Shown piece after piece: positions 7,726 to 28,538 of a DNA stretch of 64,000 nt. The stretch comes from an uncultured Alphaproteobacteria bacterium (lineage in GTDB: Bacteria > Pseudomonadota > Alphaproteobacteria > Rs-D84): assembly GCA_963540515.1 (NCBI GenBank), contig CAUTNA010000001.1, forward strand, positions 74,699-138,698. Direction: 5' to 3'. The notes beneath the pieces were generated by a model. That model worked only from the letters and a program-made list of their open reading frames with translations. It was not told the DNA's origin and did not search any database. The translations under genes were made by a program, and so were the position numbers. Numbering within the stretch: the first letter of the stretch is position 1; each line of letters opens with the position of its first letter.

Positions 7726-8049
7726 ATGTCTGAATTAGCTGTTAATAAATTTATAAGTTTAATAAAATTTTACAATCAATTGATGAGTGTATCTTCTGCA
7801 ATATGTGTAAAAAAACATGGGATTCCTATGGAAAATTATATTGGAAGATTTTTTATTGCAGATACACTTGAGTTTATTACAGAGTTTGGTAAAAAACTTG
7901 ATGATGATAAATTATTAGACAATTCTTTAAAAGAAGCTCTAGAAAACTTGATAATTCAATTCGAATCTGCAAAAGATTTGGTTACACCAACTCAAAAACC
8001 AGTTTATGAAATGACATTAGAAGAATTTGAAAAAGTTATGAATATTTAA
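7726..8049 (+). CDS. Hypothetical cytoplasmic protein, co-oriented with and 2 nt upstream of the secretin-like gene
   Basis: 107-aa ORF with no transmembrane segment or signal peptide. Its stop at 8049 is directly followed by the start of the next ORF at 8052. Confidence 0.35.
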   Translation: MSELAVNKFISLIKFYNQLMSVSSAICVKKHGIPMENYIGRFFIADTLEFITEFGKKLDDDKLLDNSLKEALENLIIQFESAKDLVTPTQKPVYEMTLEEFEKVMNI

Positions 8050-8051
8050 TT

Positions 8052-9386
8052 ATGGAAAAACATACAATGAATATTTTTTTTAAATTAATAATCTTTTTAA
8101 TTATTCCATTTCTTTTGTATTCTTGTAATAAACAAAATGGAAGCTCTGATTATAAAACTGTAAATGTTTATGAAAATTTAGTTGTTAGTGAGAACTCAGT
8201 TCCTATTTTTCCGAAAAAAGCTGCTCTTACAACAGATACAGCAAGAAGATTTTCAATTGATTTACCAAAAAGATGTACAGTTGATTGGAATAACCAGAAT
8301 GTATTTTCTATAATACCGGAAGAAAAAGTTGAAATAATTCGTCTAAATAAAGGAGATGAATTACCTAATTTAAATGTTTCAGAATATGAATTTTCAAATA
8401 TAACTGTAAAAGAAACTTTAGAAAAACTTCTAGAAGGAACAGATATAGATGTTGTTCAAGATGAACCTACTTCTGAAAAAATATCAGGTTTTATAAAATC
8501 AGGAACTCTTTCAGATTCTTTAGAGTTAATTTCTAAAATGGGAAAAATTTATTATTCCTATGATAACGATTCCAAGGAAATTCATTTGTCTGGTCATTCA
8601 AAATGGCTTATGAAAATGCCAAAGGATGAGAATATTATTATTGCTTTAATAGATGCTATGCATGGATTAGATATGAGAAATTTACTTGTAGATTGGGAGG
8701 ATAAAACTCTTGTTTTTGAAGGAAACTTTCAGACAGAAAAAGAAGTTCAAAAAATAGTATCTGCTTTTAGTTCAAAAAAAACTTTGATTGCTTGGGATAT
8801 AGATATTTATCGTGTATATCCAAGAACAGATAATCCTATTGTTTGGATGAATATATTGTCTGCTTTTGGTAATAATAATATAAAAATGTCTGTTCCTGGT
8901 GTTGTTGGAAGAATGTTAGTTGTAAGCCCAGAAATAAATACAAAAACACTACAAAAATTTTTGTATGGTCAAGCAAATGTTGTATTAATATCTCAAGGTA
9001 CTTTTATATTACCAGATAATTGGCAATCAAGATTTGATATAGGACAATGTAGTAGAGAAGAAAGGTTAGAAACAGATCTTATAATAGGAGCAACTGCAAA
9101 ATATGCAGATTTTGCTGGTAGAAATAAAATTGATGCAAAAATTGTTTTAAGAACAAAACGAGGAGAATTATCTTCTTTTAGAGTTCCAACAAAAATAGGT
9201 GATAACTATGTAATAATTGGTATTCCAACACATTCTTTTGTGAATACTGAGAAAACTATAATAAACCCATTCTCTGAATTAGTTGTATTTATGAGTCCAA
9301 GACTAATATCTATTTCTGAAGGTATAAAAGATATGCCAAAAACAGAATTATCTGGAAATGCACTTAGAGAATATCTTAACGAATAA
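8052..9386 (+). CDS. Secretin-like outer-membrane lipoprotein (type IVb pilus / T2SS family, BfpB/PilN/RcpA-like)
   Basis: Signal peptide plus lipobox (FLLYSC). Has an N-terminal secretin N0/STN-like segment (NITVKETLEKLLEGTDIDVVQDE...ISGFIKSG). The C-terminal secretin-domain signature is present (ANVVLISQGTF...RVPTKIGDNYVIIGIPT...ELVVFMSPRLISI). 444 aa. Confidence 0.55.
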   Translation: MEKHTMNIFFKLIIFLIIPFLLYSCNKQNGSSDYKTVNVYENLVVSENSVPIFPKKAALTTDTARRFSIDLPKRCTVDWNNQNVFSIIPEEKVEIIRLNKGDELPNLNVSEYEFSNITVKETLEKLLEGTDIDVVQDEPTSEKISGFIKSGTLSDSLELISKMGKIYYSYDNDSKEIHLSGHSKWLMKMPKDENIIIALIDAMHGLDMRNLLVDWEDKTLVFEGNFQTEKEVQKIVSAFSSKKTLIAWDIDIYRVYPRTDNPIVWMNILSAFGNNNIKMSVPGVVGRMLVVSPEINTKTLQKFLYGQANVVLISQGTFILPDNWQSRFDIGQCSREERLETDLIIGATAKYADFAGRNKIDAKIVLRTKRGELSSFRVPTKIGDNYVIIGIPTHSFVNTEKTIINPFSELVVFMSPRLISISEGIKDMPKTELSGNALREYLNE

Positions 9387-11641: not shown

Positions 11642-12283
11642 ATGAAAATTGAATATCTAAAGCAAGATTTAAAAGAAGTTGAGAAAAATTTTGCATATAT
11701 ATTGATGAGCAAGACTATTTGTTTAGATTTTTATAGAGCTTTAAAAGAACAAAAAGTAAAACATAATCTATTTATTAATTGGGTATTTTTAAATTATCAA
11801 GATATTATTACTTTAGATCTGTGTAAAATACTAGAAGAAAAGAAAAAACATTATTCTTTAACCAATTTTATAAAAAATCTTATAAAAAATTATGATTCTT
11901 TTACAATAAAAATTAGAGAATTTAATAATAAACTATCAAATTTTAAAATTGAAGAAATCAAAAAAAATTTTCCTAATGTTGATAATTATGATCCTAAAAT
12001 TCCTGAATTTAATATACCTGTATCAGATTTTGAATATGATTTGAAACAAATAAAAAATATTCATAATAGATTAATAAAATATCGTAACAAAAAATTATGT
12101 CATAATGATATATCTAAAGAATACAAAGATGTATCACCAGAAAAAATAAAAACATTACACTCTTATATAGATAAAATAGAAAGTATTATTATCAAATATC
12201 TTCGAATATTTAACATTTATATGGATTATGATATTTTAAAAAAAGAAAATTATTATAATAATTTCAAATTTGAGCTAAAATAA
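11642..12283 (+). CDS. Hypothetical protein with an Rx5H (HEPN-like) motif, placed directly after the tRNA-Gly/tRNA-Tyr pair
   Basis: 213-aa ORF starting 20 nt after tRNA-Tyr. Contains ...NIHNRLIKYRNKKLCHND..., which fits R-x(4-6)-H. No other recognisable domain. Followed by ~440 bp of non-coding DNA. Confidence 0.4.
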   Translation: MKIEYLKQDLKEVEKNFAYILMSKTICLDFYRALKEQKVKHNLFINWVFLNYQDIITLDLCKILEEKKKHYSLTNFIKNLIKNYDSFTIKIREFNNKLSNFKIEEIKKNFPNVDNYDPKIPEFNIPVSDFEYDLKQIKNIHNRLIKYRNKKLCHNDISKEYKDVSPEKIKTLHSYIDKIESIIIKYLRIFNIYMDYDILKKENYYNNFKFELK

Positions 12284-12723
12284 AAGAGTATTATGATACT
12301 TATTAAAACTAATTTATTTCTTATTTTAATAATTGAATTTTTTTAATTATTAAAGCATTTGAATATCTTTATTGCATATTAATAAAAAACACCCCCTTTT
12401 GTTTTAAGTTCTTATTGCTCTAGAAAAACTTTAATAGACTAGATAAATAATAATTATACAACACCAAAACTTTTTTGTAACTTGGATCTAGATATTGTAA
12501 ACTAGCAAAAAAATCTAATAAATATTATAGGCATTGAAAATATTCCCAAAAACACTATCCAGAAATATAAATATTTTTGATAAGCAATATATTCGAATAT
12601 TTTTAAGTCCAAAATTAACAGAGAAATTATTAACATATAGAAACAAATTTATAGTTTTCGTTTCTTTTGATTTTAAATTAAAAAAATATATAAGTTTTAA
12701 TATTTAAAAATTCTATTTCAAAC

Positions 12724-12800
12724 TGGTAGCGGGAGGGGGACTTGAACCCTCGACCCCATGATTATGATTCACGTGCTCTAACCAGCTGAGCTATCCCGCC
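12724..12800 (-). tRNA. tRNA with CAT anticodon (elongator Met or Ile2-lysidine)
   Basis: Reverse complement folds as GGCGGGA...anticodon loop ATCATAA...T-loop TTCAAGT...TCCCGCT-A-CCA. The anticodon stem is not the GGG/CCC initiator type and the 1-72 pair is a G-T wobble. Confidence 0.85.
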
Positions 12801-12840
12801 AGTGCTTATACAGTATAAAGTTTAAAAATAAAAAAATCAA

Positions 12841-13503
12841 TTACCAAATAATTTCTTTTTTACCTAAACTTTTTAGATACTGATTTGTTTTTGAAAAATG
12901 ATGATTTCCAAAAAATCCTCTATGAGCAGAAAGAGGAGAAGGATGAACACTTTTTAAAACTAAATTTTTATCTATATCTATTATCTCAGCTTTTTTTTGT
13001 GCAAAACTTCCCCATAATAAATAAACAATACCTTCTTTATAAGATAAAATCTTTATAACACTATCTGTAAATATTTCCCATCCAATACCACTATGAGAAC
13101 CAGCATAATGTGCTTTTACAGTTAAAGAGGAATTTAATAATAAAATTCCCTGCTCTGCCCAATAAGATAAATCTCCATTCGTTACACTTTTATACCCTAA
13201 ATCATTTTCTATTTCTTTATAAATATTTACAAGAGATGGTGGATAATTTACACCTTTTTGAACAGAAAAACATAACCCATGAGCTTGATTTGGCTCATGA
13301 TATGGATCTTGTCCTATTATTACTACTTTAACATTATCAAGTGGACACAAATTAAAAGCATTAAAAATATTTGAAGGTTTAGGATAAATTGCTTTTCCAG
13401 ATAAATATTCTTTCTTAATAAAATTTGTAAGATTTATAAAATAATCTTTTTCAAATTCATCTTTAAGAGCATCTTTCCAAGATTGTTCTATTTTTACATC
13501 CAT
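12841..13503 (-). CDS. ung: Uracil-DNA glycosylase, family 1 (Ung)
   Basis: Motifs VVIIGQDPYH, GVLLLN-like and HPSPLSAHRGFFG. 220 aa. Confidence 0.9.
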   Translation of the reverse strand: MDVKIEQSWKDALKDEFEKDYFINLTNFIKKEYLSGKAIYPKPSNIFNAFNLCPLDNVKVVIIGQDPYHEPNQAHGLCFSVQKGVNYPPSLVNIYKEIENDLGYKSVTNGDLSYWAEQGILLLNSSLTVKAHYAGSHSGIGWEIFTDSVIKILSYKEGIVYLLWGSFAQKKAEIIDIDKNLVLKSVHPSPLSAHRGFFGNHHFSKTNQYLKSLGKKEIIW

Positions 13504-13504
13504 T

Positions 13505-14173
13505 TCATTTATTAAAATTTATTAATCCATTTTGGCAAGCTTTCCACAAAACAACATCTATATAACCACGTGGTAAACTTGTTTCTTTTTCCATAAAACT
13601 AAACATATTATCACAAACAATTTTTATATCTTTATCGAGTTTTGAATTATTAATTTTATCGTTTAAACCGGTATTTTTACTATATAATACACCAAGCCTT
13701 TGAATCCAAATATCGTATTTAACTATATTTTCTCCTAAATTTCTTGCTAAGTGATTAACAGTAATTTTTCCAATATGCGGTAATTTTAATAAAAATAACA
13801 ACCTAGACTCTAAAGAAGTTTGCTTATAATAATTTTCTACTATAACATCCTTATCTAACCAAATTTTTATAATAGCAGATATTTTATTTTTATTATTAAA
13901 TAAGCCTATTAAATAGTTATACAAAATATCAAAATTAGTCTCTTTTGAATTGAATAAAAAATTAATTATTTTAGAGTGTATTTTTTTTGCTGTTTTTTGA
14001 GAAAAACCGCTTGCCAAAATAACATAAATACACTCAGAAGCAAAATCTTTTGAGTTTAATATTTTTTTATTTTTTAAATTTGATTTAATTTCATCAAAAG
14101 TACTTGAATCAGAATCAAGACCCTTTGATTTTAAAATATTTTCAATTTCTTCAAACCAAACTTTCGTAAACAT
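13505..14173 (-). CDS. Putative HhH-GPD superfamily DNA glycosylase
   Basis: Helix-hairpin-helix LPHIGKITVNHLARNLG and an upstream ILASGFSQKTAKK helix. Start taken at the Met (MFTKVWFEE) that avoids overlap with the gyrB stop. The ORF track's alternative start is 14209. Confidence 0.4.
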   Translation of the reverse strand: MFTKVWFEEIENILKSKGLDSDSSTFDEIKSNLKNKKILNSKDFASECIYVILASGFSQKTAKKIHSKIINFLFNSKETNFDILYNYLIGLFNNKNKISAIIKIWLDKDVIVENYYKQTSLESRLLFLLKLPHIGKITVNHLARNLGENIVKYDIWIQRLGVLYSKNTGLNDKINNSKLDKDIKIVCDNMFSFMEKETSLPRGYIDVVLWKACQNGLINFNK

Positions 14174-14174
14174 T

Positions 14175-16586
<2,412 letters not shown>

Positions 16587-16649
16587 TTAGTAAAATTCTC
16601 GTAAAACATAGCAATTTTTGATATAATAGGCAAGGAAAAAGGCGGTCTT

Positions 16650-17216
16650 ATGAAATTTAAACTTTTATATTTTGGAGAAATTTTTACAAATCCTAAAAGA
16701 AGAACAAAACATATTTCTGATATACGTATGCAATTTCATCCACAACTAAAAAAGTTAGTTGAACATAGCCCTTGGTTAAATTTAAAAAAATATATGTATC
16801 CTAATGTATCGAAAAATTTAACAAGTTCAAAATTTATTTGTGGCACATATTGGAATCCTATTATAACTCCAAAATTAAAATTAATAGCTGAACTTGATAT
16901 ACAAATGTTACATCCAGAAATAGTTGGAGTTGCACGATCAGATATAGATAATAGAGTAAAAACTCTATTGGATGGGCTTAGATGTCCACAAACAGAAAAA
17001 GAAGTTTCTGAAGAAATGTATGATTATAAAGAACCTGTTTTCACACTATTAGATGATGATCATCTTGTTACAAAAATATCTGTTAATACAAGTCATCTCT
17101 TATCAAATGAAATTTTTAAAAATAAATCTTTATCTTCAGATTCAATATTTATGCTAATAAATGTAAATGTAAGAGTCTCAGAAGGTAATTTAGAAAATTT
17201 ACCTTTTATGATCTGA
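16650..17216 (+). CDS. Hypothetical protein
   Basis: 188-aa ORF between gyrB (divergent) and the pilC-like gene (convergent). No recognisable motifs. Confidence 0.35.
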   Translation: MKFKLLYFGEIFTNPKRRTKHISDIRMQFHPQLKKLVEHSPWLNLKKYMYPNVSKNLTSSKFICGTYWNPIITPKLKLIAELDIQMLHPEIVGVARSDIDNRVKTLLDGLRCPQTEKEVSEEMYDYKEPVFTLLDDDHLVTKISVNTSHLLSNEIFKNKSLSSDSIFMLINVNVRVSEGNLENLPFMI

Positions 17217-17237
17217 TGAATTTAAAAGAAAAGTTTC

Positions 17238-18308
17238 TTAATTTAAATTTGTCATTATTTGATCTTGAATTTGAAAAGTTCCAAGTACTACCCATGCAAT
17301 TATAAAAGAAACCAGAATTATACCAATAGTATTGATTGTACTAGATATAGATTCTGCCTTTCTAATACTATTTTCAAGATAATCTTCGGCTATCTTCGAT
17401 ATATTTTCATTAAAATTATTCATATCTGAATAAATAGCAAGATCTCCTATTATTTCATCGTTTGGGAAATGAGTTTTTGAATTCTCAAGAGCAATACCTA
17501 AATTATCACCATTCGCAACATTATGCATCACGGATTGTAAAATTTTATTCAAATATTTATTAGAATTTTCAGATAATAATCTTAATGCTAAAGATAAACT
17601 ACAACCACTCGATAACATAGCAGATAAAGAAATCATCCAACTTACACCCAAATAAACCTTATATAGGTTATAAGGAGGAATTTTATCAAATATAGTTCTT
17701 ATAAAACCTGACCAATTCTCTAAACTAATCCATACAAAAAATATAACTAAAAGAATACCTATAACTAAAAAATCCCAATAATTTTTTGTAAAATTAGAAA
17801 CATCTAATAAAATAGATGCATTTCCAGTTAAATTTTCAGTTGTACCAATAGCATCAATAAGAGGTGGTATTAAATATATACCCGACATTATTATTATTCC
17901 AAAAGTTAAGATAAATAAAAATAGTGGATATGAAACAGCCGAAAAAACAGCTCTTTTTATTCTTCTAACAGAATCTATAATTTTTGAGATATTATCTAAT
18001 GAAACTGCTAATTTTGAAATATCACCACTTGATAAAATAAGATTTTCTGTATCTGAAACCCAACCTTTTGTTGCTTCAGCAAAAGAATCTCCATTTTCAA
18101 GATTTTTTTGCCAAGATTTTACACAGATAGCAAAAGGCTCTGAATTTTTAATACCACCTTTAGATTCAATTAACTCTATTCTTCTAAGAGCTTCCATAAG
18201 AGTAAAATTATTTTTTAATAATGAAGATATTTTTCTATATAAAGATAACCTTTTTTCAGTATCTAATTTAAATATAAGTTTTGCGTATAATAAATCTAAA
18301 AAAAACAT
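17238..18308 (-). CDS. Type II secretion / type IV pilus platform protein (GspF/PilC/TcpE-like, T2SSF domain)
   Basis: 356 aa. Two cytoplasmic helical domains are separated by TM helices (SYPLFLFILTFGIIIMSGIYLI; FLVIGILLVIFFVWI), with a C-terminal TM (IGIILVSFIIAWVVLGTF). This is the GspF topology. Immediately downstream of the secretion ATPase. Confidence 0.7.
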   Translation of the reverse strand: MFFLDLLYAKLIFKLDTEKRLSLYRKISSLLKNNFTLMEALRRIELIESKGGIKNSEPFAICVKSWQKNLENGDSFAEATKGWVSDTENLILSSGDISKLAVSLDNISKIIDSVRRIKRAVFSAVSYPLFLFILTFGIIIMSGIYLIPPLIDAIGTTENLTGNASILLDVSNFTKNYWDFLVIGILLVIFFVWISLENWSGFIRTIFDKIPPYNLYKVYLGVSWMISLSAMLSSGCSLSLALRLLSENSNKYLNKILQSVMHNVANGDNLGIALENSKTHFPNDEIIGDLAIYSDMNNFNENISKIAEDYLENSIRKAESISSTINTIGIILVSFIIAWVVLGTFQIQDQIMTNLN

Positions 18309-19937
18309 TTAATATATCCCCGGTTGATCTATTAAACCTACCCATCTTTCTAATTCATCAATAGAAATAATTCCTTTTAACATTAATTCAATAGCAGATT
18401 CTTTTAAAGTTCTTCCATCTAAATTTTCAAGCCAATATCTAGTTGCAGATTTTGTATCTCCAGATAAAGCAAGATTTAAAAATTCTCCATCAGTTATTAT
18501 AATTTCTCCAGCTTTTATTCTTCCGTTTGTTCCCTTATTTTTACAATTATCACAACCACAACCTTGTATATAAATCTGTTTTAAACCAATTTCTCCAAAA
18601 GCATCTTTTACCCTTTTATAAGCAGGATGTTCTGGATTATCGATTAATTTTTTCTTACACTTAGGACATAATTTTTTAAATAAACGCATAGATACTAAAC
18701 CTCGCATCATCGTTTCATCTTTTAATTTAAAAGATTCTACACCAATATCTAATAATCTAGTTAATGCAGTCATAGCAGAATTAGCGTGTAAAGTAGTCCA
18801 AACATTATGACCAGATAAAGCTCCTTTTACAGTTAATTGAGCAACTGATAAAGTTCTTATTTCTCCAACCATTAAAGTATCAGGATCGCTCCTAAGAGCA
18901 GCAGCTAATGCCTCTGTAAATTTTTCTTCTCTTTGCTCTTCATTAGAAGTATTAATAACAGGAATTTGATGTGCTCCAAATATTTTTTGTTCTGCAGGAT
19001 CTTCAACTGTTATAAGATTTATTTCATAATTTTTCTCTTTAAGTAAAAGAGACATATTTCTTACTAAAGTAGTAGATTTTCCAGAACTTGTAGGTCCCGC
19101 AACAATAACAAGACCAGTTGGATAAGAACGCAATCTCATTAAAAGTTTTTGTTCATATTCTCCAAACTCTTGTTCTGTTTTTATTCCTTCTGTTGGATTA
19201 TCATAAAGTAATCTCATAACAACATATCTACTACCAAATGCAATTGGATTGAATTGCATTCTTATACCTATAATTCCATCAGGTAAATATAAATCTTTTG
19301 TCCCTCTAAGTGGAGTTCTTCCATCTTTTTGAGCAGATTGATACTCATTCTGAGCATAATTAGAATTTGAAATATCAGACGAAGCAAACGCAGCTCTTAC
19401 AAAAGATTCTCCCCAACTTGAACTATACTCAAAAACAGATTGAATACTACCATCTATTCTAAAATAAATAGTTGTTTGATCAGATACATCTATGTGAATA
19501 TCAGATACTTTTTTTGATACAGCTTTAGATATTATATCAATAAAATCTTTCTGCATTTGATTATCAAACTCTATTTTTAGTCCACCATTTAATTTAATTT
19601 CATTTGTTTTATATATACTTGAAATCAAACTAATATCACAATAATAAGGTTCCAAATGAGTTTTGTTTTTTTTATTTAGAAGTTCTAGAAAAGCTAAGAC
19701 TCTTCCATCATATTGATGATTTCTTGATATTATAATTTCACCACCAGAAAAATAAGCTATTAAATTTTGTGAATCTTTAGATATCTCTAAATCAGCACCT
19801 GTTGAAGTCAACAACTTATTGTTATTAGAAAATAGATAATCTATTATTTCTTTAGAAGAATTTTCCATTGCTTTTGGTATAGAAAAATTCTCTTTCTTTT
19901 TTTTATATTTTAAAGAAAAAGATGTATTATTCATCAA
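18309..19937 (-). CDS. GspE/PilB-family secretion ATPase with a C-terminal tetracysteine zinc finger
   Basis: N2-domain SDIHID, Walker A VIVAGPTSSGKSTTL, Asp box TVEDPAEQ, Walker B LMVGEIRTLSVAQ, His box GHNVWTTLHANSA. Tetracysteine CPKC...CGCDNC. 542 aa. Confidence 0.9.
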   Translation of the reverse strand: MMNNTSFSLKYKKKKENFSIPKAMENSSKEIIDYLFSNNNKLLTSTGADLEISKDSQNLIAYFSGGEIIISRNHQYDGRVLAFLELLNKKNKTHLEPYYCDISLISSIYKTNEIKLNGGLKIEFDNQMQKDFIDIISKAVSKKVSDIHIDVSDQTTIYFRIDGSIQSVFEYSSSWGESFVRAAFASSDISNSNYAQNEYQSAQKDGRTPLRGTKDLYLPDGIIGIRMQFNPIAFGSRYVVMRLLYDNPTEGIKTEQEFGEYEQKLLMRLRSYPTGLVIVAGPTSSGKSTTLVRNMSLLLKEKNYEINLITVEDPAEQKIFGAHQIPVINTSNEEQREEKFTEALAAALRSDPDTLMVGEIRTLSVAQLTVKGALSGHNVWTTLHANSAMTALTRLLDIGVESFKLKDETMMRGLVSMRLFKKLCPKCKKKLIDNPEHPAYKRVKDAFGEIGLKQIYIQGCGCDNCKNKGTNGRIKAGEIIITDGEFLNLALSGDTKSATRYWLENLDGRTLKESAIELMLKGIISIDELERWVGLIDQPGIY

Positions 19938-19940
19938 AAA

Positions 19941-20600
19941 TTAATTTTTACTTATATTTAAAACTTGTGTTTCATCATTTTTTATAAAAACAATTCCTTC
20001 ATCTAAAGATATAGATTTAATTTCAAAACCATCTACAACTTTACCAACAGAAACTTTTTTTTGTCCACCTGTCCTTAAATCTTCTATTTTTGCTTGAAGC
20101 TCACTTCCAACACCAACTATATCAATTAGTTTATAAATACTAGAAATATCATCTAATCTTTTTAGAACTTTATTTTCTACTTTAGAATTTGAACTAGAAT
20201 AAGAATTTTTTTGACTCACAAACCTTTGTTTTTCTTCTTCTAAAGAAGCTTTTTCTTGAGCAAGTCTTTCTTTTTCTTGTTCTAAATCCTGTTTTTGCTT
20301 TTCTTCCATATTAACAAGATTTTCCATTTCAATATTCAACTTTTTCTTTTCAGAATTTACTCTCTCTAAATCTAATTCTAATTGAGCTTTTTCCTTTTTC
20401 AACTGAATTAAGACTTTTTCTTGTTCTAAATCTGTTATTTTTTTAAATAAAGAATCTTCTGTATTATAATTCAATACAGCTTCATCACTTGTATTATTTT
20501 CTAATAGATTTTCTTGCGTATCTTCCTCTGCAAAAGAAAAATTACAATTAAATATAAAAATACTAACAATAACAAAGTATTTTATAAAACTATTTTGCAT
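19941..20600 (-). CDS. Periplasmic coiled-coil protein with C-terminal beta domain (GspC/PilP/GspM-like accessory, putative)
   Basis: Signal peptide, then a long Glu/Lys heptad coiled coil (EEKQKQDLEQEKERLAQEKASLEEEKQRF), then a C-terminal domain KVSVGKVVDGFEIKSISLDEGIVFIKNDETQV. Overlaps the upstream ORF by 11 nt, implying an operon. Confidence 0.4.
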   Translation of the reverse strand: MQNSFIKYFVIVSIFIFNCNFSFAEEDTQENLLENNTSDEAVLNYNTEDSLFKKITDLEQEKVLIQLKKEKAQLELDLERVNSEKKKLNIEMENLVNMEEKQKQDLEQEKERLAQEKASLEEEKQRFVSQKNSYSSSNSKVENKVLKRLDDISSIYKLIDIVGVGSELQAKIEDLRTGGQKKVSVGKVVDGFEIKSISLDEGIVFIKNDETQVLNISKN

Positions 20601-21855
20601 ATATTATCACCTCATAATTCCAAATCTTAGATTCTTCTTTCCAAGATATATTTGTAAAATAAACACCTTCAAAATTTTTAAAAATTTCTATAAACTGTAT
20701 AGGAGTCAATTTAGAAGAAAAAGAGATCTCTAAAATATTTAAATTTATAATATTCTCTCCATCCTGAATTGAATCTATAGCGATATTTGTATTTAAACTT
20801 TCTATAAAACTTTTTTGTAAAATACCAACAATTTGTCTCTCTATAAACTTTATATCTCTTTTATCCTTAGAAAATATTTTTTCCACCTCTGGAATTTTAA
20901 TTCTCAATAGAATTTCTGAATCTGATTTTTCTTCTATTTGTACACCAGGAAAATGCTTATAAACAAAATCATAAAAGTCTTTAATATTACCAAAAGTTCT
21001 TTTAAAAAAAACTGATGCGTAATAATCATTACAATTAACTTCTGTCTGACTCCAACCAACAACTGACTGCATTAAAAAATTAATACTTTTATAACAAGAA
21101 TTTATATATGAAGTTAAAACAGGTAAAGATTCATAAGGTAATTTTATTGGTTCTTTTATCAATTCATCAATTTTAAAATCTTTATCTAGCTCTTGATTTT
21201 TTTCTTCCAATTGTTTTTTATATTCTTCTGCGAGAGTAGGATCTATTTTAGAAATTTGTTTTCTGTTAATTAAAGAATCTCTTATAGGTTCTTTAAAAAA
21301 GGAAAATAATCCAAATAAAAAAAATAATAAAATAAGAAAAGAAAAAATATTAGAACCTAAATTACTTATTGGTTTTAATAAAAACTTCGTATTTGTAAAA
21401 ATACTATTATTTAAATCTTTTTCTATTCCACCTTCAATTTTCCAAGATGATGGAGCAATAAAAACACCCCAATCAGGCATTTCTTTTAATTTTAAATATT
21501 CATCATAAGCATCTTCTTCAGACAAAAAAAGTTTATCATAAATAATAATATTATTTCTTACTGCTACTAACCAAATTTCTTTTTTTAATTTAAAAGCACA
21601 TAAAAAAGAATATATCTCTTTAAAACTTTTTATAAGCTCAATCGCAGCAACAGGCATATTATTTTTATGCCCAAATTTAGAGGAACCAAGCCCTATAATT
21701 GTTCTGTAATCAACATAAAAATTTAATTTTTTATCAACAGATTTTACTAATTGCTTTGCATAATTTTTTGGTAAAATACCACCAGGTAATGGTTGCCAAA
21801 ATAAACCGACTGCATATTTTTTTTTATTTATAAATATTGTTTTATTTTGCAACAA
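20590..21855 (-). CDS. Bitopic inner-membrane assembly protein: cytoplasmic domain, one TM, periplasmic domain (GspL/BfpC/PilM-N-like, putative)
   Basis: 421 aa. Cytoplasmic domain of ~165 aa, one TM (IFSFLILLFFLFGLFSFF), periplasmic domain of ~235 aa. The topology and the position next to the ATPase match GspL-type partners. No sequence-level confirmation was possible. Confidence 0.35.
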   Translation of the reverse strand: MLQNKTIFINKKKYAVGLFWQPLPGGILPKNYAKQLVKSVDKKLNFYVDYRTIIGLGSSKFGHKNNMPVAAIELIKSFKEIYSFLCAFKLKKEIWLVAVRNNIIIYDKLFLSEEDAYDEYLKLKEMPDWGVFIAPSSWKIEGGIEKDLNNSIFTNTKFLLKPISNLGSNIFSFLILLFFLFGLFSFFKEPIRDSLINRKQISKIDPTLAEEYKKQLEEKNQELDKDFKIDELIKEPIKLPYESLPVLTSYINSCYKSINFLMQSVVGWSQTEVNCNDYYASVFFKRTFGNIKDFYDFVYKHFPGVQIEEKSDSEILLRIKIPEVEKIFSKDKRDIKFIERQIVGILQKSFIESLNTNIAIDSIQDGENIINLNILEISFSSKLTPIQFIEIFKNFEGVYFTNISWKEESKIWNYEVIIYAK

Positions 21856-21924
21856 AAACCCTCTTACAATCTAGAATTAGATTATAACATAAAATCAAGA
21901 TAAATATCAAATATAGATTAATTT

Positions 21925-22320
21925 TTAATAAGTTATACCACTTAACTCTGGTGAACCATAGGATGAATTTTTACTATCTGATACAGTCTTTATATATCTT
22001 GGGTTTGGACAATCATAAACATTAGCATTTAGAACAAAAGCTCTTTCTGGTCCAAAAACTACCCATTCATTTGGTCTTGTTCTTTGACTTGTTATCATAT
22101 AAGCATTACCTGGACGAGATTGATCAACTATTTTATTTTCTAAATATCTTCTAGCATCATCAACATCATAAACAGAAACTTCAGATTCTATTTTATATAA
22201 GTAAGTACAACCAATTGGTTCTGATTCTAATTTTACTAGATTTTGACTCCCATTCTCGTTTTTAACCAAACTACTACAACCACTAAGAAAAAATATAAAT
22301 AAACAACATATTTTTTTCAT
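21925..22320 (-). CDS. Small lipoprotein (possible pilotin/accessory)
   Basis: Lipobox FFLSGCSS. 131 aa, with internal Cys residues. Sits between lpxC and the secretion-system genes. Confidence 0.4.
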   Translation of the reverse strand: MKKICCLFIFFLSGCSSLVKNENGSQNLVKLESEPIGCTYLYKIESEVSVYDVDDARRYLENKIVDQSRPGNAYMITSQRTRPNEWVVFGPERAFVLNANVYDCPNPRYIKTVSDSKNSSYGSPELSGITY

Positions 22321-22337
22321 ATAATACCCCTCTTGTT

Positions 22338-23261
22338 TTATCCAACTATATCATAATTAGATTTATCACTAAATATCTTTTTAAGTAAAATATTATTTAA
22401 CGCATGACTTCCTTTATAAGAATCTAATTTTCCATAAATAAAACCACCACTAGTAAACAAATCTCCTAAGATATCAATTACTTTATGTCTTACAAATTCA
22501 TCAGGTTTATGTAATTTATTTATAGTTCCATCACCAACAGAATTTAGTGCAATTACATTTTTTTCTGATGCACCTCTTGCCATTCCATGTTTTTTTAAAA
22601 ATTCCCATTCTGAGTATTTCCCAAAAGTTCTACAATTAGCAAAATTTTTAATAAAATTACTAAAAGATTTTTCAGAATTATCAAAAATATATTCTACAGA
22701 TTGAAGACCTATTATTTTATCTTTATAATCTAATGTTACTTTTATGTGTAACCCTTTATTATATGGTGATATTTTTATATAATTATTAGGTTTTGTTTTA
22801 AATAAATTAAAAATAAAATATCTAACTTTTTCAAAAAAAGAAAAAGACTTAACTAAATCCTTATTATTTACAACAATTTCTTTTTTTATTATGATTTTTT
22901 TCATAGTATTTTTTGATTTATCTTTTTTTAAAAAATCACAAAACTCTAATGCACTTCCATCTAAAATTGGTGTTTCTGAATTATTTATATCTATTAAAAC
23001 ACTATCTATTCCATTTATAAATAACGCAGCCATTAAATGTTCTATTGTTTTAACATTTGTTTTTTTTGAACCAATTGTTGTATTTCTAAATTTTGTTTCA
23101 GTCACATTTGTAAATTTAGCTTCTATATAATCAGATCCTTTTATATCTACTCTTCTAAAAAAAATTCCTTCTTTTTTAGATGGTTTTATTTTCATATTAA
23201 CAGGATTACCAGAATGTATTCCAATACCTTTTATACTAATTATATTTTTTACTGTTGTCAT
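22338..23261 (-). CDS. lpxC: UDP-3-O-acyl-N-acetylglucosamine deacetylase
   Basis: N-terminal IKGIGIHSG and TIEHLMAALFINGIDSVLID...TPILDGSA motifs. 307 aa. Confidence 0.9.
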   Translation of the reverse strand: MTTVKNIISIKGIGIHSGNPVNMKIKPSKKEGIFFRRVDIKGSDYIEAKFTNVTETKFRNTTIGSKKTNVKTIEHLMAALFINGIDSVLIDINNSETPILDGSALEFCDFLKKDKSKNTMKKIIIKKEIVVNNKDLVKSFSFFEKVRYFIFNLFKTKPNNYIKISPYNKGLHIKVTLDYKDKIIGLQSVEYIFDNSEKSFSNFIKNFANCRTFGKYSEWEFLKKHGMARGASEKNVIALNSVGDGTINKLHKPDEFVRHKVIDILGDLFTSGGFIYGKLDSYKGSHALNNILLKKIFSDKSNYDIVG

Positions 23262-24159
23262 TTATTTTTCCTTTAAGCCAAATCCAAAATTTGTCTTCTA
23301 TTTTAGTATCTAGAATTGCAAAATTTATTTTATTTTTATAATTATCTGGAAACTTTACCCAATCTTTTTCAGTAGTGATTAAACTTGCTTTCTCTTTTTC
23401 AGCAAAATCTAACAAATTATCTAAATCTTTGTTTTTATATTCATAATGATCTGGAAAAGAAAATGTTTTAATTGGTTTTATTTTTAATGAATTAAAAAAT
23501 TTTTCAGGATAACCAATACCGGCAAAAGCAATTATTTTTTGATATTTTGTTGAAGGTATTAAAGTTTTATTTTCTACAAAAAATATTGGTTTTTTATATT
23601 TATTTAATTTTTTTTCCAATTTATTTGTTATTCCTTTTATTATTATAATAGCATCACTTCTTTTTATAGCACTTAAAGCTTCTCTATATGGACCAGCCGG
23701 TAAAATAAAACCATTTGCAAGACCAATAAATTCATCAAAAACTAATATACTTATATCTTTTTTTATAGTTGAATTTTGAAAACCATCATCCATAAGAATA
23801 GGTTTATCTTTATCACAAAAATTTAATATACGAATATTATTTCTTCTAGATCCAACTAAAACATCAATTCCTGCATTTTTAAAAATTTTAGCTTCATCTC
23901 CTATATCTTTTTTTTTCTTTTTATATCCACGCATCACAACTGGTAATTTTAATTTTTTTGCAATAGATAATACTATTGGTGTTTTACCAATACCACCTGC
24001 AAAAATATTTCCAACACAAATAATTTTTCTATTAGATTTAAAAACAAATAATAATCTAAAAAAATATACAATTTTAGAAAAACAAAAATATAAAATAGAT
24101 AGTGGTAACAAACTATAAGATATTATATTTTTATTTAAAAACCATTCTGGGGTTTTCAT
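23236..24159 (-). CDS. lpxK: Tetraacyldisaccharide 4'-kinase
   Basis: P-loop GNIFAGGIGKTP, on an N-terminal membrane anchor. 307 aa. Confidence 0.85.
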   Translation of the reverse strand: MKTPEWFLNKNIISYSLLPLSILYFCFSKIVYFFRLLFVFKSNRKIICVGNIFAGGIGKTPIVLSIAKKLKLPVVMRGYKKKKKDIGDEAKIFKNAGIDVLVGSRRNNIRILNFCDKDKPILMDDGFQNSTIKKDISILVFDEFIGLANGFILPAGPYREALSAIKRSDAIIIIKGITNKLEKKLNKYKKPIFFVENKTLIPSTKYQKIIAFAGIGYPEKFFNSLKIKPIKTFSFPDHYEYKNKDLDNLLDFAEKEKASLITTEKDWVKFPDNYKNKINFAILDTKIEDKFWIWLKGKINDNSKKYN

Positions 24160-24899
24160 TTTCTTCTATTCTTTTTAAATTCCGTAGCAGTTAAATCAGA
24201 TTCAACTTCAAAAAGATTAAATTCTTTATCTATTTTTCTAAGTTGATTTATTAAAATATTTTCCATTTTTTCTTTTTGATAATTTAAATCTTCTTTTTGA
24301 TCTAAATATATAGGTTTTCCTATATCATAATTTATCCTTGAAAAAGGAAGAGATATTAAATATCTATCCCATCTTTTTTGAAACCAAGCTGGACTACTTG
24401 AAAAACAAACAGGAATTAAAGGAACCCCACTCATTCTTGCAAAATATAAAGCACCATCATGAAATCGTAAAGAAGGTCCAGATGGACCATCCGGTGATAA
24501 ACATAAAACATTAGATTTTTTTCTTAAAACCCTAACCCCTTGTCTTAATGCAGAAAAACCACCTTCCGAAGAACTACCAAGAATTGATTTTAATCCAAAA
24601 AATCTTTGTAATTTTGCCATTATTTTTCCATCTTTATGACGACTTGCAACAGCATAACCTCTAAAACCAAATATATAAACAATTGGTGATAACATCATTG
24701 TTCTACCATGCCAAAAAACAAAAATTACATTCTTATTTTTAAATTTTTTTAAAACATCTTTTCCTTTTATTTTTTTTATAGAAGTAAAATAAATAAACCA
24801 TATTATTAAAAACATCAAAAAAGCAAGTATCCATTGAGCAATACTATGACTCAAAATAAAATTCCAAAAATATTTCCAAGTTTTTCTAAAGAACTTCAT
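24156..24899 (-). CDS. DUF374-family lysophospholipid acyltransferase-like membrane protein (common lpxK/waaA neighbour)
   Basis: N-terminal TM, then FVFWHGR...SRHKDG...LSPDGPSGP motifs. 247 aa. Confidence 0.65.
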   Translation of the reverse strand: MKFFRKTWKYFWNFILSHSIAQWILAFLMFLIIWFIYFTSIKKIKGKDVLKKFKNKNVIFVFWHGRTMMLSPIVYIFGFRGYAVASRHKDGKIMAKLQRFFGLKSILGSSSEGGFSALRQGVRVLRKKSNVLCLSPDGPSGPSLRFHDGALYFARMSGVPLIPVCFSSSPAWFQKRWDRYLISLPFSRINYDIGKPIYLDQKEDLNYQKEKMENILINQLRKIDKEFNLFEVESDLTATEFKKNRRK

Positions 24900-25027
24900 A
24901 GGTATGTTAAATTAACAATAAAAAATAAAATTTTCAAGATATGTCTAGAATATATATTTTTTTATTTTACTTTTTATTATTATATATTATAATTTAGAGA
25001 GAAAGTTATTTTAACTTTGTTTTTTAT

Positions 25028-25104
25028 CGCGGAGTAGAGCAGTCTGGTAGCTCGTCAGGCTCATAACCTGGAGGTCATTGGTTCAAATCCAATCTCCGCA
25101 ACCA
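25028..25104 (+). tRNA. Initiator tRNA-fMet (CAT)
   Basis: C1-A72 mismatch, anticodon loop CTCATAA, T-loop TTCAAAT, encoded CCA. Matches CGCGGxGTGGAGCAGCCTGGTAGCTCGTCGGGCTCATAACC...-type initiators. Confidence 0.9.
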
Positions 25105-25120
25105 AAATTCTTTTAAAATT

Positions 25121-25738
25121 TTATTTAATACATTTTTTAATTCTAATTTCTGGATCATTAAAATCAACTTTCTTATTTCTTATCTCTTCTTCTGTTTTTA
25201 TAAATCTTTTCATTAAAATAATATCTGGATGTGTTATTATTTTTAAATTAAAAAAATCAAAAGTTTTTTCTAATTCACTTTCATCTTTTATAAAAATAGG
25301 TGTTATTGAATTAGCTGCTGAAAAAATTGATTTTTCTATTTTATTTTTACTTTCTTCTATTATTGATATATATGCTTTTATATGTTCATCTTCATGATTT
25401 AATATTGCATTATACATACAAGATCCTGGTATATGTCTTGAATCTATTTTAACTAAAAAATCACTATAACCAATTTTTGCATTAATAGATTTTAATATTA
25501 CACAAAAACCATTCTTTTTTTTTACTCTATTTATAACTATTTCATAATTTTCAGCAAAAGTTGCAATAACATTACCATGAAGAAAATTCATAGGTTTTAA
25601 TGGTTGTACAACCTCTTTTTTCCAAATAGGAGAAGTTAAAATAATATTTGGATTAATCTTATACTTTAAACAATCATCTGAAAAACAATTTGTTATAAAA
25701 AAAAATATATATAAAACAAAAATAAATATTTTATTCAT
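25121..25738 (-). CDS. Secreted protein with an HExxH (HEDEH) motif, putative Zn-metallopeptidase-like (DUF922-like)
   Basis: Signal peptide. NAILNHEDEHIKAY contains HExxH. Immediately downstream of virB4, with an 8-nt overlap. 205 aa. Confidence 0.4.
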   Translation of the reverse strand: MNKIFIFVLYIFFFITNCFSDDCLKYKINPNIILTSPIWKKEVVQPLKPMNFLHGNVIATFAENYEIVINRVKKKNGFCVILKSINAKIGYSDFLVKIDSRHIPGSCMYNAILNHEDEHIKAYISIIEESKNKIEKSIFSAANSITPIFIKDESELEKTFDFFNLKIITHPDIILMKRFIKTEEEIRNKKVDFNDPEIRIKKCIK

Positions 25739-28133
25739 AACTAGTTTTTTTTAAATATTCTTCTATAAAATTACTACCAAAAGATTTATATAATTCTTCA
25801 GCTAAAATAACAGAAGATCTACCAGATTCAAATAAACGTAATAAATTACCAAGCCCTCCAAGTTCCGTATTTAATATAACAGACTCATTATTAACAGGAC
25901 GAGATAATAAAACAGCTCTTTTTAAATTAGGATATGCTTTACCTTGAATAAAAGCCATTTCTAAAGGATTTAAATTCCAATATTTATAATCAGATAAATC
26001 TGCAGCAGGATTTCTAAAAAACAAAACTGTTTGTGCTTGACCACGAACAACATCTCCTATTCCTAATTTATCTAAAATATTAGCTCTTTGAAAAGATACC
26101 ATATATGCCTGTCTATTTTTTCTTCCTTCTTGTAATCCAGCTATAAAATTATCTCTAAACATCTTATTTTCAAGCATTGGGGCAGTTTCATCAATCATAA
26201 TCAAAGAAGGATTTCCTCCACTTACTGTTGTGGTATTTATTCTATGTAAAATATAAGAAACAACTGCTGGTGCTAATATTTCATCGTTTAAAACAGTTGT
26301 AAAATCAAATGTTGTAAGCCTTGAATCTAAATCTAAAGTATCAAAATCTTCATTAAATATTTTACCATATTGAAGTGGATCAACCCATTTTTTTAAAGCA
26401 CTTCTCATATTTCCTTTTAAAGAAAAACAACTTTCGTATAAATTTGATAATTTTTTATCTTTATCTTCAATATAGTCATAATTTATAGCAACACATCTTG
26501 ATATTTCGTCTAATGATTTAGGATCATTTTGTTCAGAAATTATAGATAACCATTTTCTTAAAAAAACTCTATTAATAGAAGAGTCTTTCATTTTTAAAGG
26601 ATTAAGATGTGTTTGAAAATTATTACCCTTTTCTTTATCAGACATAGTTATATATTTTCCACCAATAGATAAAGTAAAAATTTCCGCGCCTTTATTTCTA
26701 TCAAAGAAAAAAGCTTTTAATTTTTGATGTCTTAAAGACTGAGATATTAAAAAAGAAAAAAGAGTTGTTTTACCTCCTCCAGTTGGTCCAATTGTTAAGG
26801 TATGAGCAACAGCTACAGGTTTATCCGAAACATGAAATTGAAATTGATATGGAGTACCTTGTGCTGTAGGAAAAATAACAAGAGGTTTTTCTCCCCAATC
26901 ACAATTTTTTATACCCTCTGGACTATTTGACATAGGTATACTTATAACTGCTGTTTTTGATAACATTTTAAAACTACGTGGAAAAATATCAAAACCAGGT
27001 ATTAAAGAAAACCAAGATACTTTTGATGCAAATCTTTCAACTATTGGTGATACTCCAAAAGAAGCACAAATTTTTTTAAATTCTTCAACATTATTATTTA
27101 AATCTTCTAAAGAAGTACCAAAAACTAAAAATAAAGGATAATAATCTATTAAAGATTGATTTTCAGAAACATTTTCATCAATTGAAACTTCTATATCTTT
27201 TATCTGCTCCTCAGCTATATCTTCGTTTTTTTCTATCGTTGTTCTTTTTTGTTTTATTATATTATCAATATCAGAATTACTTAAAAATTTAAAAGAATTC
27301 ATTATTATCATTTCAGATTTAATTGTTGAAATAGAATTAAAAAACTCTTCATCTAAAAAATCTGGTGATACTTTAAATGAAATATTTGATGCAAATAAAT
27401 CATTATTTCCACTAGAAAATTTTATAATTCCATTTTTTAAAAAACTTATATTATCAACGGTTGTTATACTTGATAAATTTTGATCTTTTATAATAGGTTT
27501 AGGTTTTGTTACAGGAGATAATATTCTAGCAAAAAAACTAGCTATATTTTCAGAACTATCAAAAGTTAATAATTTAGGTTTATATATAGATAACATTGAT
27601 TCTATATAATTACAGTATTGATTTAATTTTTCTCTATTTTTAGAACCATAAACAGATATAACTATATAAAAATTATTAGTAAAAATTTTTAAACCTTGTG
27701 TTTGCCATTTATCATAAATTTTCTGAGAAACTATATTATCAAACTCGTATAAATCTTCATCTTTCGATGTATTTCTAATTGTAAAAAATCTTAAAATAAC
27801 GTTTGAATCATTTATCTGATTAAAAAATCTTGTACGAAGATCAAGAAACTGCTTTTTAACATCTTCTATTTGCATTCCTGTTTGTATACCAGATAATTTA
27901 TAAACCTTTATTAAAGAATTATTAGATAACATTAAAGAATTATCAGAATATAAAGTTTTAAAAGGTAAATAATCAGAAAATTTTTTATAACTAAATTTTG
28001 GAAATATATTTTTTTTCAAAAAAGATGAATAGATTATTAGTATAAAAGATAATATTAGTATCAACATAACAATAATAAATATTGTTAAAGAAAAATTATT
28101 AGTTATAAAATATTTAAAGTAATTATTAAGCAT
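25731..28133 (-). CDS. virB4: Type IV secretion system ATPase VirB4 (rvh-type)
   Basis: 800 aa. N-terminal TM, Walker A LTIGPTGGGKTTL, Walker B IMIDETAPM. Preceded by virB3. Confidence 0.9.
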   Translation of the reverse strand: MLNNYFKYFITNNFSLTIFIIVMLILILSFILIIYSSFLKKNIFPKFSYKKFSDYLPFKTLYSDNSLMLSNNSLIKVYKLSGIQTGMQIEDVKKQFLDLRTRFFNQINDSNVILRFFTIRNTSKDEDLYEFDNIVSQKIYDKWQTQGLKIFTNNFYIVISVYGSKNREKLNQYCNYIESMLSIYKPKLLTFDSSENIASFFARILSPVTKPKPIIKDQNLSSITTVDNISFLKNGIIKFSSGNNDLFASNISFKVSPDFLDEEFFNSISTIKSEMIIMNSFKFLSNSDIDNIIKQKRTTIEKNEDIAEEQIKDIEVSIDENVSENQSLIDYYPLFLVFGTSLEDLNNNVEEFKKICASFGVSPIVERFASKVSWFSLIPGFDIFPRSFKMLSKTAVISIPMSNSPEGIKNCDWGEKPLVIFPTAQGTPYQFQFHVSDKPVAVAHTLTIGPTGGGKTTLFSFLISQSLRHQKLKAFFFDRNKGAEIFTLSIGGKYITMSDKEKGNNFQTHLNPLKMKDSSINRVFLRKWLSIISEQNDPKSLDEISRCVAINYDYIEDKDKKLSNLYESCFSLKGNMRSALKKWVDPLQYGKIFNEDFDTLDLDSRLTTFDFTTVLNDEILAPAVVSYILHRINTTTVSGGNPSLIMIDETAPMLENKMFRDNFIAGLQEGRKNRQAYMVSFQRANILDKLGIGDVVRGQAQTVLFFRNPAADLSDYKYWNLNPLEMAFIQGKAYPNLKRAVLLSRPVNNESVILNTELGGLGNLLRLFESGRSSVILAEELYKSFGSNFIEEYLKKTSYE

Positions 28134-28422: not shown

Positions 28423-28538
28423 AATTTAATTCTCCCAACTGTTGTAATTATAACAATTTCAACTATTATCAACAAGTTTAAAAAATTTTAAGATATAATA
28501 AAAAATAAATGTTTAAAAATATAAAATATTTAACAAAC

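Follow-up and report, generated by a model that had tools for sequence, protein, structure and literature searches.

Identification of a putative type IVb pilus core

We analyzed a stretch of 64,000 nucleotides from an uncultured alphaproteobacterium of the Genome Taxonomy Database (GTDB) order Rs-D84 (assembly GCA_963540515.1, contig CAUTNA010000001.1, positions 74,699 to 138,698; hereafter the window, numbered from its first letter). The analysis centered on five adjacent genes at 17238-22320, which a first-pass annotation had described as a compact machine resembling type II secretion systems (T2SS) and type IV pili. The locus is probably a chromosomal, vertically inherited gene cluster for the inner-membrane core of a type IVb pilus, of the kind represented by the R64/PAPI-1 Pil2 pili and the bundle-forming pilus (Bfp). 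Judged from sequence comparison, four of the five flagged genes are that core.

All five open reading frames (ORFs) were found on the minus strand, exactly where they had been reported. In the direction of transcription, they are the gene for an orphan lipoprotein of 131 amino acids (aa) (21925-22320), a pilO2/bfpC-type gene for a bitopic assembly protein (20590-21855, 421 aa), a pilP-type gene for a periplasmic protein (19941-20600, 219 aa), the gene for a type IVb assembly ATPase of the BfpD/R64 PilQ type with a tetracysteine motif (18309-19937, 542 aa), and the gene for a platform protein of the GspF/PilC/BfpE family (17238-18308, 356 aa). The last four are closely packed: pilO2 and pilP overlap by 11 nt, pilP and the ATPase gene are 3 nt apart, and the stop codon of the ATPase gene abuts the start of the platform gene. 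The gene order in the window, pilO2-pilP-ATPase-platform (20590-17238), recurs in type IVb pili of the R64 thin-pilus and Bfp types. When 72,556 plasmids were searched with the ATPase, the top matches (33-35% identity) lay in clusters annotated as TcpQ, PilN secretin, PilO2, PilP, ATPase, GspF-family protein and pilin, of which the window has the middle four genes in the same order. PilN-PilO2-PilP-ATPase-GspF clusters were seen on the Methylovorus plasmid pMsip01 and on plasmids of E. coli.

The ATPase had been placed in the GspE/PilB family from its motifs, and this was confirmed by a match to Pfam T2SSE (E 7e-65). The reported motifs were present, with SDIHI at residue 145, the Walker A sequence GPTSSGKS at 281 and the Asp box VEDPAE at 311; the Walker B sequence RSDPDTLMVGEIR was found at 349, and cysteines at 424/427 and 460/462/465. 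Comparison with solved structures showed that the best relative was BfpD (8dze, E 2.7e-79, residues 30-528, N-domain included), with clearly weaker matches to GspE (7e-46) and PilB (about 1e-38), although the sequence identity to BfpD was only about 32%. The NCBIfam GspE model gave 221.8 bits against a cutoff of 630, which falls short of the T2SS equivalog, and the TadA-family model was matched weakly (E 7e-12, 45 bits, cutoff 373).

The platform protein matched Pfam T2SSF in two stretches, corresponding to two T2SSF domains (E 1.3e-22), in agreement with its earlier description as a GspF/PilC-type protein. It has three transmembrane segments and matched PilC in the Protein Data Bank (PDB; 3jc8, E 4.7e-8). 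The NCBIfam models ComGB, GspF and PilC all remained below cutoff (GspF 69.6 bits versus 424). The protein is of the single, full-length GspF type, unlike the TadB/C pair. Profile searches thus placed the ATPase and the platform in T2SSE and T2SSF, not in a family unrelated to secretion.

Two other machines of the same superfamily were considered and rejected. A Tad/Flp pilus was dismissed on the weak TadA match (45 bits versus 373) and the single full-length GspF-type platform. A T2SS was dismissed because the GspE and GspF equivalogs were far under cutoff, no pseudopilin motif was found in the window, and its accessory proteins belong to PilO2 and PilP instead of GspL and GspM.

PilO2- and PilP-type accessory proteins

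The 421-aa protein had been noted for a topology like that of GspL or BfpC, and our data indicate true BfpC/PilO2 homology beyond topology. It has 523 homologues, most of them with a precomputed Pfam PF06864 assignment. Orthologues at 41-51% identity have this domain and are named "type 4b pilus protein PilO2" by NCBI. BLASTP aligned its residues 7-144 with PilO2 of Methylovorus pMsip01 (E 9e-15). When a family profile was compared with solved structures, the BfpC N-domain was the best relative (3vhj, E 0.0066), followed by PilO2Bp (4bz0/4byz, E 0.013). A single transmembrane segment at about residues 163-181 separates a cytoplasmic actin-like N-domain from a periplasmic C-domain, and the N-domain of PF06864 has an actin-like fold common to BfpC (PMC3984277).

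The 219-aa protein had been described as a coiled-coil protein with a signal peptide and a beta domain at its C-terminus. It has these features, the coiled coil being long, and belongs to the PilP family. It matched NCBIfam TIGR03021 (pilP_fam) with E 4e-6 and 27.9 bits over residues 111-201, and the same model was matched by 20 of 20 orthologues tested (best E 5.9e-11). Its gene lies between pilO2 and the ATPase gene, as in R64-type clusters. Comparison of the PilP family profile with the PDB returned coiled-coil noise only. The first-pass annotation had seen no similarity of the accessory proteins to named families beyond topology. This was therefore wrong for the 421-aa protein (PilO2, PF06864) and the 219-aa protein (PilP, TIGR03021) and right for the 131-aa protein.

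Conservation of the pil genes in gut Rs-D84 genomes

The window ATPase was used to retrieve 80 related species-level genomes, in which it had homologues at 73-80% identity. They were without exception metagenome-assembled genomes from the gut, of termites, ruminants, humans, chickens and mice, with the labels Candidatus Enterousia, Alphaproteobacteria or Rickettsiales, and they include one closed chromosome (716,531 bp). The window had first been read as part of a Rickettsiales-like endosymbiont genome, and this has to be corrected, since its relatives are all gut genomes of the order Rs-D84 / Candidatus Enterousia. Genomes of this order are smaller than 1 Mb, have no upper glycolysis or respiration, miss amino-acid, nucleotide and lipid biosynthesis, show no build-up of pseudogenes, and are predicted to be partner-dependent (PMC12306168). 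That paper was the sole genomic description of the order found in the literature; it gives type IV pili for another lineage only, mentions none for Rs-D84, and nothing else on pili in Rs-D84 was found.

The window is densely filled with housekeeping genes and has a guanine-plus-cytosine (GC) content of about 25%. The GC content of the 80 related loci was 33-56%, and the identity of the ATPase to that of any species representative never exceeded 80%. The window thus belongs to a branch of Rs-D84 with an unusually high AT content, for which raw metagenome contigs are the only representatives (for example, Logan SRR16100534).

The string DUF374-lpxK-lpxC-lipoprotein-pilO2-pilP-ATPase-platform was intact in about 78 of the 80 loci, and this recurrence puts it far beyond chance. 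The four pil ORFs themselves were intact in 77-80 of the 80 species. The median identity to the window protein was 79% for GyrB and 76% for the ATPase, followed by the 131-aa lipoprotein (66%), LpxC (55%), the platform (54%), LpxK (51%), PilO2 (42%) and PilP (42%). At the level of sequence, this pattern demonstrates strong purifying selection on the pil operon across about 80 Rs-D84 species.

These data bear directly on the proposal, raised with the first-pass annotation, that the locus might be a decaying, non-functional remnant, in this case of a mobile-element pilus. Its one support is that a pilin and a prepilin peptidase were not found in the sequence examined. However, the ORFs are intact in nearly all species, conservation of the ATPase is close to that of GyrB, the promoter and the ribosome-binding site described below are conserved across loci of 33-56% GC, and Rs-D84 genomes do not accumulate pseudogenes. 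We regard a remnant as extremely improbable.

Transcription units and the 131-aa lipoprotein

On the minus strand, the pil genes lie downstream of a DUF374 gene (24156-24899), lpxK (23236-24159) and lpxC (22338-23261), all three confirmed by Pfam/NCBIfam. The lipoprotein gene follows lpxC after 17 nt and is separated from pilO2 by 69 bp. It had been reported that no terminator is visible after lpxC, and this holds in the window, where no terminator-like hairpin was found between lpxC and the pil genes. The conclusion drawn from it, co-transcription of the pil genes with lpxK-lpxC, was not upheld.

A sigma-70-type promoter with an extended -10 element (TTGATA-18-TGTTATAAT, preceded by TG) was found in the 69-bp gap upstream of pilO2, at 21910-21881 on the minus strand. 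With 11 of 12 matches plus the TG, it was the top-scoring promoter-like site in the region 16500-25200. In 78 related loci (GC 33-56%) the lipoprotein-pilO2 gap had a median length of 117 bp. An extended -10 element, TGnTATAAT, occurred at the equivalent position in 76 of these loci, the TTGC of the -35 element was 91-99% conserved, and a conserved AGAGAGAGAAA ribosome-binding region lay downstream of the promoter. A terminator-like, GC-rich hairpin with a T-run followed the lipoprotein gene directly, upstream of the promoter, in 59 of the 78 loci. The lipoprotein gene itself lay a median of about 20 bp from lpxC. Because of this spacing, the conserved pilO2 promoter and the hairpin upstream of it, the genes would form two separate transcription units, DUF374-lpxK-lpxC-lipoprotein and pilO2-pilP-ATPase-platform. 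Some read-through from lpxC into the pil genes is possible in the AT-rich window, which has no such hairpin.

The 131-aa protein had been called a small lipoprotein, and it does carry an LSGC lipobox. Its family comprises 528 proteins, found in this lineage only, named "hypothetical" and free of any Pfam domain. The core, residues 20-107, is almost invariant and the family has two conserved cysteines. Profile searches with this protein found nothing in Pfam, NCBIfam or the PDB, and its AlphaFold2 (AF2) model was unusable (predicted local distance difference test score, pLDDT, 47). No similarity was found to pilus proteins, including BfpG in PDB entry 9u5s, or to the genes downstream of distant secretin homologues. 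The gene occupies the position that a TcpQ-type secretin partner has in other type IVb clusters, without similarity to those proteins. In the bfp operon, bfpG holds the equivalent position. The lipoprotein gene appears to belong transcriptionally to the lpxC unit, and position alone would link it to the pili.

We weighed a five-gene machine, lipoprotein included, that is co-transcribed with lpxK-lpxC and couples pilus assembly to lipid A synthesis. Such coupling would fit the lack of a hairpin between lpxC and pilO2 in the window, the adjacency kept in about 78 species, and the TcpQ/BfpG-type position of the lipoprotein gene. It conflicts with the strong promoter directly before pilO2 in 76 of 78 relatives, with the hairpin after the lipoprotein gene in 59 of 78, and with the absence of detectable similarity between the lipoprotein and any pilus protein. 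The adjacency itself is uninformative because synteny across the order extends over the whole 20 kb from virB3 to udg. Coupling is an appealing but unsupported idea, which we consider very improbable and correct here.

Proximity to VirB type IV secretion genes

The first-pass annotation had also placed type IV secretion system (T4SS) genes close by. This was borne out: the gene at 25731-28133 on the minus strand is virB4 (Pfam CagE_TrbE_VirB, E 4e-14), and with it, upstream, lies a virB3-like gene for a protein of 98 aa with two transmembrane segments. The virB3-virB4 pair is 4 kb upstream of the pil genes.

The strong-promoter pattern TTGnnn-N13-15-TGnTATAAT was matched at only two sites in the 64-kb window, at 28447-28475 on the minus strand before virB3 and at 21881-21910 on the minus strand before pilO2. 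In relatives, the pattern was present before pilO2 in 71 loci and before virB3 in 6 of the about 7 loci that include the start of that gene. Two matches in 64 kb are not significant by count (the simulated mean was 0.66, and 15% of simulations reached at least two), so any promoter argument rests on position and conservation. Loci carried about two copies of the pattern each, some of them in front of other genes, and one recurrent site lay downstream of udg. The pilus and T4SS operons may share a strong promoter class.

A thin pilus that stabilizes mating or other contacts and acts together with a VirB/D4 (rvh-like) T4SS, as the R64 thin pilus does in liquid IncI conjugation, would account for the nearness of virB3-virB4 and for the two full promoter matches in front of pilO2 and virB3, both repeated in relatives. 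The nearest plasmid relatives of the ATPase, moreover, lie in conjugative elements, beside TrbB/TrbC or TraU/TrbC. On the other hand, the promoter type is generic and its two occurrences in the window are not unusual, neither PilV nor a shufflon was found in the fetched loci, and the virB proximity may be mere general synteny. A mating function of this kind is, in our judgment, improbable.

A divergent secretin encoded 8 kb from the pil genes

The secretin candidate that had been pointed out 8 kb from the pil genes (8052-9386, plus strand, 444 aa) proved to be a true secretin homologue by profile-profile comparison. It is a highly divergent, minimal lipoprotein with a lipobox followed by N0/STN, N1 and secretin domains. 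Pfam STN was weakly matched by 28 of 35 members of its family. The AF2 model was confident at residues 90-240 only, and a Foldseek search with the model returned top PDB matches that were nearly all secretin N0-N1 regions (MxiD, GspD, PilQ, EscC, XcpQ and BfpB, 9u5s).

A profile search of 1.84 billion representative proteins reached longer lipoproteins with E-values of 7e-14 to 5e-6. All ten of those tested matched Pfam Secretin above cutoff, two carried a fused TcpQ domain, and their best NCBIfam models were the pilus secretins MshL and PilN. In a conjugative element, the gene for one such relative is followed directly by T2SSE and T2SSF genes. When the 444-aa family was aligned by hhalign with 25 of these secretins, the probability was 99.7% (E 3e-26) over 330 columns (query residues 90-426), and the alignment extended from N0 and N1 over the entire secretin domain, with the C-terminal ELVvFMSPR motif included. 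Pairwise BLASTP and two-sequence hhalign against PilN-type secretins had not been significant; these results were superseded by the larger profiles. By these comparisons the 444-aa lipoprotein is a genuine secretin, short and very divergent. It is probably the outer-membrane pore of the pilus, a pairing that we infer because no other secretin-using system was present in the sequence examined.

The secretin gene is part of a block of ftsQ, a 126-aa lipoprotein gene, a 107-aa gene, the secretin gene and lolC. In 80 secretin-centered metagenome loci the block mostly had neither gyrB nor pil genes within 10 kb, so that the 8-kb distance is particular to the sub-lineage of the window. In one related locus (L042) the block was placed directly after the platform gene.

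The 107-aa gene (7726-8049, plus strand) ends 2 nt before the secretin start and encodes a cytoplasmic-looking protein without a family match; its membership in the pilus is uncertain. It preceded the secretin gene in 78 of the 80 metagenome loci, and a similar gene preceded the secretin homologue of a distant lineage (L085, 34-654). In another locus (L089, 10001-11725), a 107-aa-like segment is in frame with the secretin homologue, forming one ORF of 574 aa. The 126-aa orphan lipoprotein gene (7280-7660, minus strand) is divergent to the secretin block; its product is 73% conserved over 66 loci and has no family match.

Search for pilins, prepilin peptidase and other pilus components

About 2.5 Mb of sequence was searched for the remaining parts of a type IVb pilus. 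It consisted of the window, 80 operon-centered loci and the 80 secretin-centered loci and covered two genomic neighborhoods only. Homologues of 19 reference type IVb proteins were sought by tblastn. The earlier statement that the window has no pilin, pseudopilin or prepilin peptidase was confirmed, as both the motif scan and the homologue search came back empty there, and GspC, GspL, GspM and pseudopilins were not seen in the window. In the secretin-centered loci, the sole matches in the pilin and peptidase search were antisense frames of the secretin gene. ORFs downstream of the other strong-promoter copies included no pilin or peptidase.

Some relatives have genes inserted behind the platform gene. 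These were considered as pilin candidates and rejected: they encode a porin, a sigma factor, a BamB-like protein and repeat proteins. In four related loci (L039, L052, L062 and L071, at about 12700-14500), a gene for a protein of about 430 aa was inserted directly after the platform gene. This protein starts with MADFKFDLE and has a coiled-coil C-terminus, and the same strong extended -10 promoter precedes its gene.

Several results weigh against a type IVb pilus at this locus. Neither a G-x4-E prepilin motif nor a pilin homologue was found in the window or the 160 related loci, and this missing pilin is the main gap in the machine. An A24 prepilin peptidase and minor pilins were likewise absent from the window and from the roughly 2.5 Mb of the two neighborhoods, and no homologue of PilL, PilM, PilT, PilV or TcpQ was detected in the window and the 160 loci. 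Direct searches with the window proteins were also less clear than those with their families: the 421-aa protein itself had no Pfam or NCBIfam match, so that its orthologue set and profile were required, the 27.9 bits of the 219-aa protein lie below the curated TIGR03021 cutoff of 34.65, and the 444-aa protein had no Secretin match in Pfam or NCBIfam. Finally, the 10 kb around the secretin block contain no pil operon in most relatives, and the short contigs that carry secretin homologues of distant lineages show no pilus genes. The absent peptidase is not alarming, because known Pil2-type clusters can use one in trans; PAPI-1 and Tfp7 have no peptidase gene of their own and use one encoded elsewhere (PMC3984277).

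Comparison with known type IV pili and secretion systems

The closest known systems are the R64 thin pilus and the Pil2 pili of PAPI-1 and Burkholderia Tfp7, which have the same pilO2-pilP-ATPase-platform order. They share with the Rs-D84 locus the signature proteins PilO2 (PF06864) and PilP (TIGR03021), and a lipoprotein secretin occurs in both. The peptidase acts in trans in PAPI-1 and Tfp7, and this may be so here. However, Pil2 clusters are carried on a plasmid or an integrative and conjugative element (ICE), whereas the Rs-D84 cluster is chromosomal and vertically inherited in a genome of less than 1 Mb. The Rs-D84 secretin is encoded apart from the cluster, is missed by Pfam/NCBIfam, and has 444 aa instead of about 550. 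No pilin gene follows the Rs-D84 platform gene, and homologues of PilL, PilM, PilT, PilU, PilV and TcpQ went undetected in the fetched Rs-D84 sequence.

The bundle-forming pilus of enteropathogenic E. coli (EPEC), with BfpB, BfpC, BfpU, BfpD and BfpE, provides the nearest solved relatives, namely BfpD and the BfpC N-domain, and BfpB is a structural match to the secretin. It differs in that the ATPases are only about 32% identical, homologues of bfpA, G, P, H, I, J, K and L were not found, and the Rs-D84 PilP belongs to the R64 family.

T2SSs have the ATPase/platform and secretin superfamilies in common with the Rs-D84 locus, and their GspL is analogous to its bitopic actin-like protein. In contrast, the Rs-D84 ATPase is far nearer BfpD (2.7e-79) than GspE (7e-46), all Gsp equivalog models remained far under cutoff, and GspC, GspM and pseudopilins were not found in Rs-D84.

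Proposed assembly and role of the Rs-D84 pilus

By analogy with Bfp and R64, from which all interactions in the proposed machine are inferred, the BfpD-like hexameric ATPase would dock both on the platform, from the cytoplasmic side, and on PilO2, at its actin-like N-domain. ATP hydrolysis would turn or lift the platform, so that processed pilins would be pulled from the inner membrane and added at the base of the fibre. PilP and the periplasmic part of PilO2 would bridge to the N0/N1 rings of the outer-membrane secretin, and the fibre would exit through the secretin encoded at 8052-9386. The pilins and the prepilin peptidase would be encoded outside the window.

The most likely role of such a pilus would be that of a surface fibre that attaches these dependent gut bacteria to a partner cell or a host surface. 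This role is favored because the lineage depends on other cells and because there is a precedent in Saccharibacteria, whose type IV pili are required for association with the host bacterium (PMC9894109). The parallel is one of function and not of membership: in both cases a type IV pilus would be among the few envelope machines retained by a bacterium that is ultra-reduced and dependent on a partner, and the likeness in lifestyle is drawn from PMC12306168. Unlike Saccharibacteria, Rs-D84 has a Gram-negative envelope with lipid A genes and a secretin, and its predicted pilus is of another subtype.

A type IVb-derived secretion machine, in which a short pseudopilus-like fibre pushes a single protein or a small number of them, such as adhesins, toxins or hydrolases directed at a partner cell, through the secretin, would be built from parts identical to those of a pilus. 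Long-fibre accessories (the PilV adhesin, a shufflon and a retraction ATPase) were undetected in the fetched loci, which would suit a short fibre, and the lineage, in which standard importers are missing, has been described as a likely exploiter of other cells (PMC12306168). Yet no candidate cargo gene was linked to the operon, the ATPase is much nearer BfpD than GspE, and the genes for GspC, GspL, GspM and pseudopilins were not seen. Fibre formation and secretion, moreover, are not mutually exclusive in type IVb systems. Some type IVb pili are known to secrete proteins: the toxin-coregulated pilus (TCP) exports TcpF and the colonization factor antigen III (CFA/III) pilus exports CofJ. We judge a dedicated secretion machine to be unlikely.

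Uptake of DNA by a competence-type pilus that scavenges nucleotides was also considered. Rs-D84 cells have no nucleotide biosynthesis, and DNA uptake through a pilus has been suggested for other bacteria that are ultra-reduced and depend on a partner, which would favor such a function. The order has been likened to Patescibacteria (PMC12306168). However, the ATPase, PilO2 and PilP all belong with adhesive/conjugative type IVb pili and not with Com or type IVa systems, and general family scans of the window ORFs found no comEA, comEC or retraction ATPase. DNA uptake as the main function is quite improbable.

Returning to the attachment pilus, the separate observations could be joined in a wider picture. 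The pilus would be the organelle of partner attachment or exploitation on which all of Rs-D84 relies for its obligate, metabolically dependent life, with non-canonical, unlinked pilins, a stripped-down secretin and lineage-specific parts of 131 aa and 107 aa that fall outside any known family, and it would be co-expressed with the VirB T4SS through the strong-promoter class. We put this forward tentatively, as a combination that is possible though rather doubtful as a whole.

Members of Rs-D84 / Candidatus Enterousia occur widely as gut bacteria, in humans, ruminants, birds, mice and termites, and seem unable to live alone. A pilus core as conserved as GyrB, a strong promoter and a secretin missed by annotation make up a concrete candidate for their contact organelle, and the pilus may serve as a handle for enrichment, imaging or antibody work. 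The points of interest are conservation at a housekeeping level in an ultra-reduced gut lineage, a secretin invisible to annotation, and pilins that are presumably unlinked. The secretin also illustrates that profile-profile methods can recover a protein unseen by direct Pfam/NCBIfam models.

Neighboring genes in the window

Several genes near the pil and secretin loci were also inspected. Downstream of ftsQ, a 589-aa ORF (4832-6601, minus strand) has an FtsA-like N-terminal part (weak SHS2_FTSA) and, at residues 394-574, a ribulose-phosphate 3-epimerase domain. The gene was called with the same 589 aa on an independent contig (L091). The ORF is either an ftsA-rpe fusion or the result of a lost stop codon.

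The gene at 11642-12283 (plus strand) encodes a 213-aa protein with a borderline match to HEPN AbiU2 (E 6e-6, 26.2 bits versus a cutoff of 26.8). It may be a defense gene of the abortive-infection type, which would be unexpected in so small a genome.

The gene at 16650-17216 (plus strand) is convergent to the platform gene and adjacent to it in about 70 species. Its 188-aa product is 67% conserved. A RusA-like resolvase, suggested by a D-I-D-N-R-V-K motif, was considered for this protein and dropped, as no Pfam, NCBIfam or PDB match was obtained.

Directly downstream of virB4, with an 8-nt overlap, lies a gene for a 205-aa signal-peptide protein (25121-25738, minus strand). The protein is 44-55% conserved in relatives, has no family match, and may be a lineage-specific component of the T4SS.

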